Of a stretch of 64,000 nt of DNA, positions 44,491 to 46,160 are shown in pieces. How positions within the stretch are numbered: the stretch's first letter is position 1; the number at the start of each line of letters is the position of its first letter. Both the position numbers and the translations under genes were made by a program. Below the pieces are notes generated by a model, which saw only the letters and a list, made by a program, of their open reading frames with translations, was not told the DNA's origin and ran no database searches. Source of the DNA: Escherichia typing phage 1; sequence record KP869100; one strand, given 5' to 3'.

Positions 44491-44794
44491 ATCACTTAAG
44501 AGTCTTCTAAGAGGGTTTTTAAGTGATGTGTAGCTTGGTCAGGTATGGTGCGGTGGTGTAAGGTGGTGTCAGGTGTAGTATGGTGCGGTGATGTGAGGTA
44601 TGGGTAGTTAGTCTCAGCTACATTAAAATGAGACTTACCTTTTTAAAAGGTCTTTAAACAGGGTCTTTTAATAAGGTGGGGTGGGGTGGTGTATGGTCTG
44701 GTAAGGTGGGGTGTGGCGCGGTATGGGTGGATGGTAGTAGCCACATTAAAAATCTACCAAGTTTCTAAAGAGTCTTCTGTTGAGGGTTCTTTAC
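44491..44794 (+). repeat. GT-rich repeat units 1 and 2 with conserved large-loop hairpins
   Basis: Units share ACTTAAGAGTCTTCTAAGAGGGTTTTTAAG, a GGTG-rich tract and a terminal hairpin (AGTCTC..GAGACT at 44610-44635; GGTAG..CTACC at 44733-44758). Confidence 0.6.
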
Positions 44795-44834
44795 AAACAA
44801 CTTAACAATCAACTAAAGTGTGGAGCTAAATGCT

Positions 44835-45422
44835 ATGAAACTGTTAAATATCAAAATCACTGGTACTCGTCCTTTCCTGAGCCACGCTGATACGCTGTCA
44901 GACCCATTAAACCCTCTGACAAAATATCACAAGTCTCTGTCCAGTAAACGTAAAAAGACTGACGAAGACTATGCGCTCTTAGCAGAAAGCCAACTGGTAA
45001 CTTCTTGTTACTACGATGAGCAGCTAGGTTTTGTTATGAACGGTGAGATGATTGAGGCTTGTATCAAGTCTGGTGCAAAACTCAACAAACTTGGTAAGGT
45101 AATTGACCGAGCCATTATGCTGACAGATGTAGTCTTCCCAATGACTATCAAGAACTGTCCAGCAAACCCACAAGAACTTGCTAAGAATCCAGACTTTATC
45201 TATGCTAAGTCTGTTAAGATTGGCACAGCACGAGTTATGAGCTACCGTCCAATCTTCCGTGACTGGTCTGTAGAGTTCGGTTTGATGTTCGATGAAGAGC
45301 AAATTACCAAAGAAGAACTCTTGATGGTTCTGGAAAATGCTGGTAACCTTTGTGGTGTAGGTGATTGGCGTCCACGCTTTGGTCGTTTTTCTGTAGAAGT
45401 TATTTCAGAAGGTAACGTTTAA
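44835..45422 (+). CDS. hypothetical protein
   Basis: ATG at 44835 behind a GGAG SD (track offered a GTG at 44820). Confidence 0.5.
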
Positions 45423-45424
45423 TT

Positions 45425-45865
45425 ATGAATACAAAAGCATTAGCAGCAAAGTTCAGTTACGGTGACACTGTATCACATTCTGAGATGGACACCTTCTTAG
45501 GTATTGTGAAGCCAACTTATCAAGGTGACATTGTTAAGTACGAAGATGAAATGAAGGCTTATGCACTTACACGACTAAACCGACTTGAGAAGTTTATTGA
45601 GAAGCTTCTTAAAGAAGAGAAGATTTATCTTGTTGCTTCAATGGGTGTTGGTTATCGTGTGGTTGAGCCTAAGCATCAAGCGACTATTGCAAAACGTAAA
45701 ATGTCTGGTAAGATTGGTCGTGCTTTAAAGCAAGCCACTCAAGCAATTGAGAATGTGAACACTATGGCACTGAGTCATCAAGAACGTTCACGGCTGATTG
45801 AACAGCAAAACCACTTAGCTGCTATGAAAGCTAACATTAACAAGCAACGTAGAAAACCTTTCTAA
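45425..45865 (+). CDS. hypothetical protein
   Basis: 146 aa; followed by a terminator. Confidence 0.5.
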   Translation: MNTKALAAKFSYGDTVSHSEMDTFLGIVKPTYQGDIVKYEDEMKAYALTRLNRLEKFIEKLLKEEKIYLVASMGVGYRVVEPKHQATIAKRKMSGKIGRALKQATQAIENVNTMALSHQERSRLIEQQNHLAAMKANINKQRRKPF

Positions 45866-45876
45866 GTTGACTATGT

Positions 45877-45899
45877 AGCCTCTTCGGAGGCTCCTTTTT
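45877..45899 (+). terminator. intrinsic terminator (AGCCTC-TTCG-GAGGCT)
   Basis: Perfect 6-bp stem, TTCG loop, then CCTTTTT. Confidence 0.6.
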
Positions 45900-46160
45900 A
45901 AAAGGTCTTTAAGAGGGTCTTTTAATAAGGCTCGGCAATGTTCGGCATGGTCTGGTATAGTCCGGTGCTGTTCGGCGTGGTAAGGTGAGGTATGGGTAGT
46001 TAATCGGAGCTACATAAAAATTCGATTACATCACTTAAGAGTCTTTGAAAAGGGTTTTTAAGTGAGGTTTGGCTCAGTATGGTTATGTGTGGTGATGTGT
46101 GGTTCTGTAAGGTCATGTTTGGTATGGAAGGATGGCAGTAGCCTTATAAAAAATCTGCCA
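45897..46160 (+). repeat. GT-rich repeat units 3 and 4 with conserved large-loop hairpins
   Basis: Homologous to units 1-2; hairpins TAATCG..CGATTA (about 46000-46027) and GGCAG..CTGCC (46132-46157). Confidence 0.6.

Follow-up and report, generated by a model that had tools for sequence, protein, structure and literature searches.

The closest described counterpart of the locus studied here is VIPR (Viral Interference Programmable Repeat), a system of phage SUSP1 reported in two bioRxiv preprints of April 2026 (10.64898/2026.04.26.720920; 10.64898/2026.04.26.720927). We analysed a stretch of 64,000 nucleotides from Escherichia typing phage 1 (sequence record KP869100; 'the window' below means this whole stretch) and conclude that its positions 44432-46161 very probably constitute a type II VIPR locus of a Felixounavirus. 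VIPR itself is already known, and the window is a further type II instance of it. A first-pass annotation of the window had noticed four GT-rich repeat units at two intergenic loci in this region, which it took for selected, structured elements recognised through a hairpin loop; it treated the repetitive tract of each unit as filler and made no connection to the two genes situated between the loci.

The preprint evidence for VIPR comes from RNA sequencing, pull-down, cryo-electron microscopy and silencing of GFP (10.64898/2026.04.26.720920; 10.64898/2026.04.26.720927). Vipr is an early-branching RAMP protein whose gene is adjoined by an accessory gene, vap, and its guide RNAs (vrRNAs) consist of 9-16 YNNGG repeats and a structured tail, which is reported to be pseudoknotted in the SUSP1 clade (10.64898/2026.04.26.720920; for all but the pseudoknot also 10.64898/2026.04.26.720927). 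Each repeat is bound by one Vipr protomer, with GGY flipped out via residues H17, R138, D177, W178 and R179, while the NN dinucleotides pair with double-stranded DNA, each third base being skipped, and transcription is silenced; reprogramming NN redirects the silencing. The SUSP1 vrRNAs are discrete species of ~100 nt bound to Vipr, guides across the SUSP1 clade share a satellite phage as their target, and vrRNAs are also encoded by some of the satellites themselves (10.64898/2026.04.26.720920; 10.64898/2026.04.26.720927).

More distant parallels exist. The backbones of class 1 CRISPR-Cas complexes (Cas7, Csm3 or Cmr4 on CRISPR RNA) share with VIPR the RAMP fold with its G-loop and thumb, polymerisation of the protein on a guide RNA, periodic base flipping that interrupts pairing, and a conserved structured handle that caps the variable part of the RNA. 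They differ in register, which is 5 nt and set by GGY in VIPR but 6 nt and sequence-independent in CRISPR; VIPR moreover holds its information in only 2 of 5 nucleotides and is encoded by a virus. In TRAP on the trp leader and in the origin of assembly of tobacco mosaic virus (TMV), the register of the homo-oligomer along single-stranded RNA is likewise fixed by a short triplet recurring at the spacing of one protein subunit, but there the spacer bases are uninformative and the role is attenuation or encapsidation, with no DNA recognition. RNA anti-CRISPRs, or solitary repeat units, are phage RNAs that mimic host CRISPR repeats and poison host complexes. These too are small phage RNAs that engage RAMP-type proteins in conflicts between genetic elements, whereas a VIPR phage brings both protein and guides and targets another mobile element.

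Results

The repeat units contain strict arrays of GGY-NN pentamers

All four units lie on the + strand at the two intergenic loci where the first-pass annotation had placed them (Table 1). The tract that it called GGTG/GGTATGG-rich exists in each, but is really a strict 5-nt array, (GGY-NN)x10-15, with GGY fixed and NN hypervariable. In a periodicity scan of the 64 kb, 12 of 12 N-G-Y triplets fell into a single 5-nt register in all four tracts, and no comparable N-G-Y register was found elsewhere in the window on either strand, a regularity well outside what chance would give. With repeat counts of 13 (plus two degenerate repeats), 10, 13 and 12, these tracts fit the tandem YNNGG repeats, conserved in GGY and hypervariable in NN, by which VIPR is defined. 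Related phages show the same pattern. Position frequencies in 63 related tracts were G 0.79, G 0.99 and Y 1.00, followed by two near-random positions, and GGY was in register in every one of 87 units (80 distinct) from 27 Felixounavirus loci in IMG/VR, where each genome region has 1 to 5 of them. Across these phages the tracts vary freely in repeat number (8-20) and in their NN bases, and the RNA loci are just ~80% identical between Felixounavirus phages, against ~97% at the nucleotide level for the two genes that they flank.

The genes between the arrays match vipr and vap1

The first of these genes, named gp096 in phage wV8, encodes a minimal single-RRM RAMP protein with a G-loop and thumb, as expected of Vipr. 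A profile search of PDB sequences returned entry 36pp, 'SUSP1 Vipr protein', with an E of 3.8e-80; the window protein is identical to the 36pp chain at 187 of 190 positions and 98.5% identical to the Vipr of SUSP1 (tblastn), and each of the GGY-flipping residues listed above is found in it. Directly 3' of vipr lies vap1 (wV8 gp095), the adjacent gene with a predicted DNA-binding product that also belongs to the definition of VIPR. Its product is 99.3% identical (tblastn) to the protein at the corresponding position in phiSUSP1 (L009). An AlphaFold2 single-sequence model of gp095 had a modest pLDDT of 68, and its structure matches to winged helix-turn-helix regulators were weak. Pfam and PADLOC searches gave no match for either gene.

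The association of Vipr with pentamer arrays extends to distant relatives of gp096 (39-49% identity), drawn from metagenomes and IMG/VR. Of 62 distant Vipr loci, 59 had tracts with GG at period 5 on the same strand as the gene (149 tracts), placed just 5' of the RAMP gene or just 3' of the gene pair, and periods 3, 4, 6 and 7 gave 0 tracts on the gene strand of the 62 loci. The opposite strand held 4 period-5 tracts, all in one locus (L078 1394-1669, - strand), which may form a second, divergently oriented array. A partner gene of 166-182 aa stands 3' of the RAMP gene in 3 of 3 distant loci inspected in detail, and the partner genes of distant loci have the wing motif G-x-G-Y-R-V-V in common with gp095.

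We also observed that the third repeat position is relaxed in some arrays, where GGA and GGG stand beside GGY upstream of the vipr homologue (L072, L087, L089, L090, L095, L096, L098 and L102). Only GG at period 5 is invariant in these clades; a GGY scan missed their arrays and a GG scan found them.

Guides match a satellite in yecE when every third base is skipped

For target matching, the NN bases of each guide were scored against DNA with a fixed skip between dinucleotides, and an NN match of 80% was taken as the threshold. One IMG/VR locus (L018) is a satellite that lacks vipr and in which a free-standing unit has a promoter and a terminator to itself. Its 11 kb were matched at this threshold by 26 of 74 distinct Felixounavirus guides with a 1-nt skip, by no guide with skips of 0 and 2 nt, and by one with a skip of 3 nt; since L018 is itself among the guide sources, we took this last match as the satellite's own vrRNA against its own gene. 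In E. coli chromosomes the satellite forms an island inside yecE, between yecN and yecD, and carries tape-measure, baseplate and recombinase genes. Against seven satellite variants, 36 of 54 guides from Vipr-carrying phages reached at least 80% with skip 1, and 20 reached at least 90%; skips of 0, 2 and 3 nt gave 3, 2 and 3 of the 54.

Two of the window guides have targets in this satellite. The best site of vr1, in the tape-measure gene (L125 12289-12323), matches at 23/24 NN bases, or at 26/30 when the flanking repeats are included, and other skip rules gave at most 20/30. For vr3, 22/26 NN bases match in the satellite of an E. coli O157:H7 strain (L120 11967-12004, - strand), within a hypothetical coding sequence at 11907-12236; the homologous site matches 21/26 in L018, L123 and L124, and other skip rules gave at most 18/26. 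Counted from the beginning of the coding sequence, each of the two sites lies at an offset divisible by 3, so the skipped base is codon position 3. Natural targets with a 1-nt skip on the wobble position, as published for VIPR, are therefore found for vr1 and vr3.

The yecE satellite has a single vrRNA gene, with promoter TTGACG-17-TATAAT, ~11 repeats and an intrinsic terminator. The tail of this vrRNA is identical to the window's vr2-type tail. As the satellite has no vipr gene, it presumably borrows the Vipr of its helper phage. In many yecE copies, insertion sequence (IS) elements (IS1203, IS100, IS1 and IS2) interrupt the tape-measure, baseplate or recombinase genes, and several satellites are probably defunct because of this disruption.

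The 3' tails form pseudoknots and the heads form G.U-rich hairpins

Each unit ends in a tail that the first-pass annotation described as a large-loop hairpin with a conserved loop. The stems that it listed, AGTCTC/GAGACT, TAATCG/CGATTA, (T)GGTAG/CTACC(A) and (T)GGCAG/CTGCC(A), are present as written. Part of the loop, GCYAC, however, pairs with an upstream GGGTRG, and the tails fit an H-type pseudoknot better than a large-loop hairpin. Among 21 distinct tails, 92.6% of cells were paired against 74% in shuffles, with 0 of 500 shuffles as high; slid controls gave 28-47%, and 9 of 11 tail pairs had changed on both sides. The covariation seen at first pass was thus borne out, as was the view that the units are selected, structured RNA elements and not simple terminators. 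A structured, pseudoknotted 3' tail is a further defining feature of VIPR that the window units possess. The idea that a hairpin recognised through its loop is the core of the unit did not hold: the noted hairpin is part of the 3' tail, and we take the pentamer tract to be the functional core because of the published SUSP1 experiments and the targeting rule reproduced here. In the window region and the related loci no Rfam model reached its gathering score, and ARAGORN made no tRNA or transfer-messenger RNA call.

The 'shared head' of the first-pass annotation is present ahead of the units, though as three types and not one sequence. Each folds as an RNA hairpin whose 17-19 bp include several G.U pairs, and the outer stems covary. 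Seventeen sequence variants of type H1 all gave the same fold in RNAfold, and type H3 was found in 36 copies across the scanned loci. A variant with a 22-nt insertion has it placed in the apical loop of the head (L004 near 1801, L015 near 7559). These hairpins of 39-41 nt are probably removed, since the mature RNAs are ~100 nt, and we infer that they may serve as processing sites between vrRNAs; RNase III as the enzyme is a guess.

VIPR arrays of some high-G+C phages (L036 5567-5960; L038 7130-7620) have tRNA-like minihelices between their units, made of an acceptor-like stem, a linker of ~11 nt (GATGGTCGTAT-like) and a T-arm whose loop reads TTCGA. The L036 minihelix scored 24.3 bits with the Rfam tRNA model, under the cut-off of 29, and ARAGORN called none. 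Their form points to RNase P or RNase Z as a possible releasing enzyme. In the linker of these minihelices stands the motif GGATGGTNGTAG, which also occurs in Felixounavirus tails. In the accessible part of the VIPR preprint text, we found no mention of either the G.U hairpins or the tRNA-like minihelices between vrRNAs.

Locus layout and genomic setting

The window region matches 229 GenBank phage records, all of them Felix O1/wV8-like myoviruses of the genus Felixounavirus, and over locus 1 its identity to E. coli O157 typing phage 15 (KP869113) is 100%. Both intergenic loci sit between the DNA ligase gene and a series of small early genes. Before this, the units had been annotated only in the wV8 record, as a repeat_region of 58 bp named 'DR_4'; the repeats given in the Felix O1 genome paper are different ones. 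A consensus scan placed a sigma-70-type promoter ahead of the first unit (Table 1), and an identical promoter stands ahead of the first unit in all Felixounavirus loci displayed.

Table 1. Features assigned to the predicted VIPR locus (window positions), with features of yecE satellites (positions in the records named)
Feature	Position	Strand	Details
Sigma-70-type promoter	44432..44459	+	TTGACA-16-TATACT; consensus scan, 11/12 matches; would drive vr1-vr2-vipr-vap
Head H1, ahead of vr1	44490..44528	+	RNAfold; 18-19 bp, several G.U pairs, UAA loop
vr1 tract	44527..44601	+	13 clear GGY-NN repeats (44537-44601) and two degenerate 5' repeats (TGTGT, AGCTT); NN = (GT TT) CA AT GC GG AA GG CA GT AT GC GA GA AT
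vr1 tail, H-type pseudoknot	44602..44637	+	helix A GUAG/CUAC, helix B AGUCUC/GAGACU
Head H2, ahead of vr2	44637..44677	+	RNAfold
vr2 tract	44675..44724	+	10 repeats; NN = GG GG GG AT CT AA GG GT GC AT
vr2 tail, pseudoknot	44725..44760	+	helix A GUGG/CCAC, helix B UGGUAG/CUACCA
Orphan (fifth) hairpin H3	44760..44798	+	just 5' of vipr ribosome-binding site
vipr (wV8 gp096)	44835..45422	+	195 aa; ancestral RAMP, Cas7-like (Cas7/Csm3-like) protein
vap1 (wV8 gp095)	45425..45865	+	146 aa; winged-helix-like N-terminus, then long helices
Intrinsic-terminator-like hairpin and T-run	45877..45899	+	3' of vap1
Head H2, ahead of vr3	45892..45931	+	overlaps terminator T-run
vr3 tract	45929..45993	+	13 repeats; NN = TC AA TC AT CT AT CC GC TC GT AA GA AT
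vr3 tail, pseudoknot	45994..46029	+	helix A GUAG/CUAC, helix B UAAUCGG/UCGAUUA
Head H1, ahead of vr4	46029..46067	+	RNAfold
vr4 tract	46066..46125	+	12 repeats; NN = TT TC AT TA GT GA GT TC AA CA TT AT
vr4 tail, pseudoknot	46126..46161	+	helix A AAGG/CCUU, helix B UGGCAG/CUGCCA
Satellite vrRNA gene	L018 433-600; L121 near 17937; L122 near 16185; L125 near 19981	-	
Satellite IS disruptions	L120 15656-16869; L125 12918-14719, 16050-16747, 17556-18784		

About half of the genomes with units lack vipr

Units are borne by ~228 GenBank records; the number of Felixounavirus-like records with Vipr encoded at any place in the genome is only ~116. Roughly 112 of the 228 Felixounavirus genomes with units, about half, thus have neither a vipr nor a vap gene anywhere. 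These vipr-less phages are mostly of the Salmonella Felix O1 type (for example SP116, UAB_Phi87, EC6 and Si3; loci L007, L011, L012, L013, L021, L024 and L025) and retain 1-2 periodic units, placed downstream of the shared promoter and ahead of the gene that follows. Some of these guides match the satellite all the same, at 16/16 in the case of SP116 (L007), and 5 of 11 guides reach at least 80%. Such orphan arrays are unmentioned in the VIPR preprints, and 'orphan' is not a word in the main one. It is possible, though we would not favour it strongly, that vrRNAs are a shareable resource for which Vipr is supplied in trans (by a co-infecting phage, as satellites evidently borrow it), or that they have a second, Vipr-independent function.

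Discussion

The combination of pentamer arrays, a Vipr protein, an adjacent vap gene, pseudoknotted tails and natural targets read with a 1-nt skip argues strongly that the window holds a VIPR locus. The resemblance to SUSP1 is close: Vipr is 98.5% identical, vap1 lies next to it, the GGY-NN vrRNAs have the pseudoknotted tail, arrays stand on both sides of the genes, and the guides, read with a 1-nt skip, target the same satellite, one that carries tape-measure and baseplate genes. Our unit calls for the SUSP1 locus (L009), 1 tract upstream and 3 downstream, agree with the published RNA sequencing. The two loci differ in the NN bases of their guides, in arrangement (2+2 in the window, 1+3 in SUSP1) and in the kind of evidence, the system having been shown by experiment in SUSP1 while the window phage is known from sequence. 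A CRISPR-Cas system in the usual sense is not indicated, since the locus consists of two genes only, with no repeat-spacer array, cas1/cas2, Cas5, Cas6 or Cas11, and what would correspond to spacers is interrupted by a fixed GGY every 5 nt.

In the layout read from the sequence, a strong early promoter is followed by vr1 and vr2, then vipr and vap1, a terminator, and vr3 and vr4; every vrRNA joins 10-15 pentamers of the GGY-NN kind to a 3' tail of 36 nt that is conserved and pseudoknotted. By analogy with the mechanism that the preprints show experimentally for SUSP1, Vipr protomers, one per pentamer, would assemble into a right-handed filament in which every GGY is flipped out and buried by Vipr and the NN dinucleotides are presented for pairing with double-stranded DNA, every third target base being skipped. 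Binding of the target would silence transcription, with vap1 enhancing the effect, and by this means the window phage would repress a satellite living at its expense.

Other explanations of the arrays were weighed against this one. The RNA could be a protein sponge or assembly platform with no guide role, GGY nucleating a homo-oligomer in the manner of (G/U)AG for TRAP, or as in TMV, and NN drifting neutrally. The near-random composition of positions 4 and 5 and the variable repeat number (8-21) are in keeping with such a role, but a drifting NN would not be expected to match the satellite in 36 of 54 guides under the NNx pattern against 2-3 under other skips, nor in 23 of 24 bases of vr1, and the published reprogramming of NN redirects silencing. 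We consider the sponge or platform model very improbable, as it is already contradicted by the NNx target matches. Slightly less credible still is an element acting at the DNA level, either a replication origin driven by a transcription-dependent R-loop or a recombination hotspot. The extreme bias of G over C on the transcribed strand (a G-rich non-template strand), the strong promoter upstream and the adjoining ligase and polymerase genes, with replication or recombination neighbours in distant loci too, would suit it; it does not predict a strict 5-nt GG register, and the features found are those of RNA, namely G.U-dependent hairpins, T-arm-like minihelices in distant relatives and, in SUSP1, discrete RNAs of ~100 nt bound to Vipr.

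Nearest to the first-pass idea are cis-acting leaders controlling downstream genes, be they put-like or boxA-like antiterminators or mRNA stabilisers. Locus 1 does lie between the promoter and vipr, its head has a boxA-like GGUCUUUAA, and vipr-less phages retain units ahead of the next gene. The boxA-like bases are, however, buried in a long hairpin, satellites have a free-standing unit equipped with a promoter and a terminator of its own, and units stand both up- and downstream of the gene pair, so that we give leaders as little credence as the DNA-level element. Several further candidates were tried and rejected. A genome end or pac site is placed elsewhere by the terminal repeats of UAB_Phi87, near wV8 gp055; a mobile cassette with repeat ends was set aside with the genes ~97% identical at the nucleotide level and their neighbours 92-95%; and a sponge for tRNA CCA ends fails in that the GGC of high-G+C clades would not pair with ACC. 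Chi-like sites, two-tier G-quadruplexes, an anti-Shine-Dalgarno sponge, boxA/boxC antitermination and a type III toxin-antitoxin RNA were also dropped.

Some observations count against the VIPR assignment. For the window phage itself it is drawn from sequence comparison. Because the tails fall into just four paralogous types, the independent covariation events are few. Both vr3 and vr4 lie downstream of the terminator-like hairpin, whose T-run (in the region 45877-45931) overlaps the first hairpin of locus 2, and neither has a promoter that could be recognised; for them to be expressed, read-through or a promoter that escaped recognition would be required. As about half of the genomes with units lack vipr, the units are not strictly dependent on a vipr in the same genome. 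Finally, in the seven satellite variants and an exact-pattern scan of IMG/VR, vr2 had no target at 80% or above (best 15/20), its two exact IMG/VR matches being taken as chance because the contigs have 61-67% G+C, and vr4 reached at best 17-18/24 in the satellite variants, with none in the IMG/VR scan.

As to principle the window adds nothing; it supplies one more clean example of the system and four guides that are new, of which vr1 and vr3 can be assigned to genes of the E. coli yecE satellite. Our computations also serve as an independent test of what has been published on three points, namely that Vipr and the arrays go together, that 1 nt is skipped between dinucleotides and that the skipped base falls on the wobble position. 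The orphan arrays, the elements between vrRNAs and the two guides without a target (vr2 and vr4) may be of value for follow-up. VIPR is a newly described form of DNA recognition by guide RNA, with a noncontiguous dinucleotide code, that phages deploy against rival mobile elements, and its protein, Vipr, has been proposed to be ancestral to the RAMP proteins of CRISPR.

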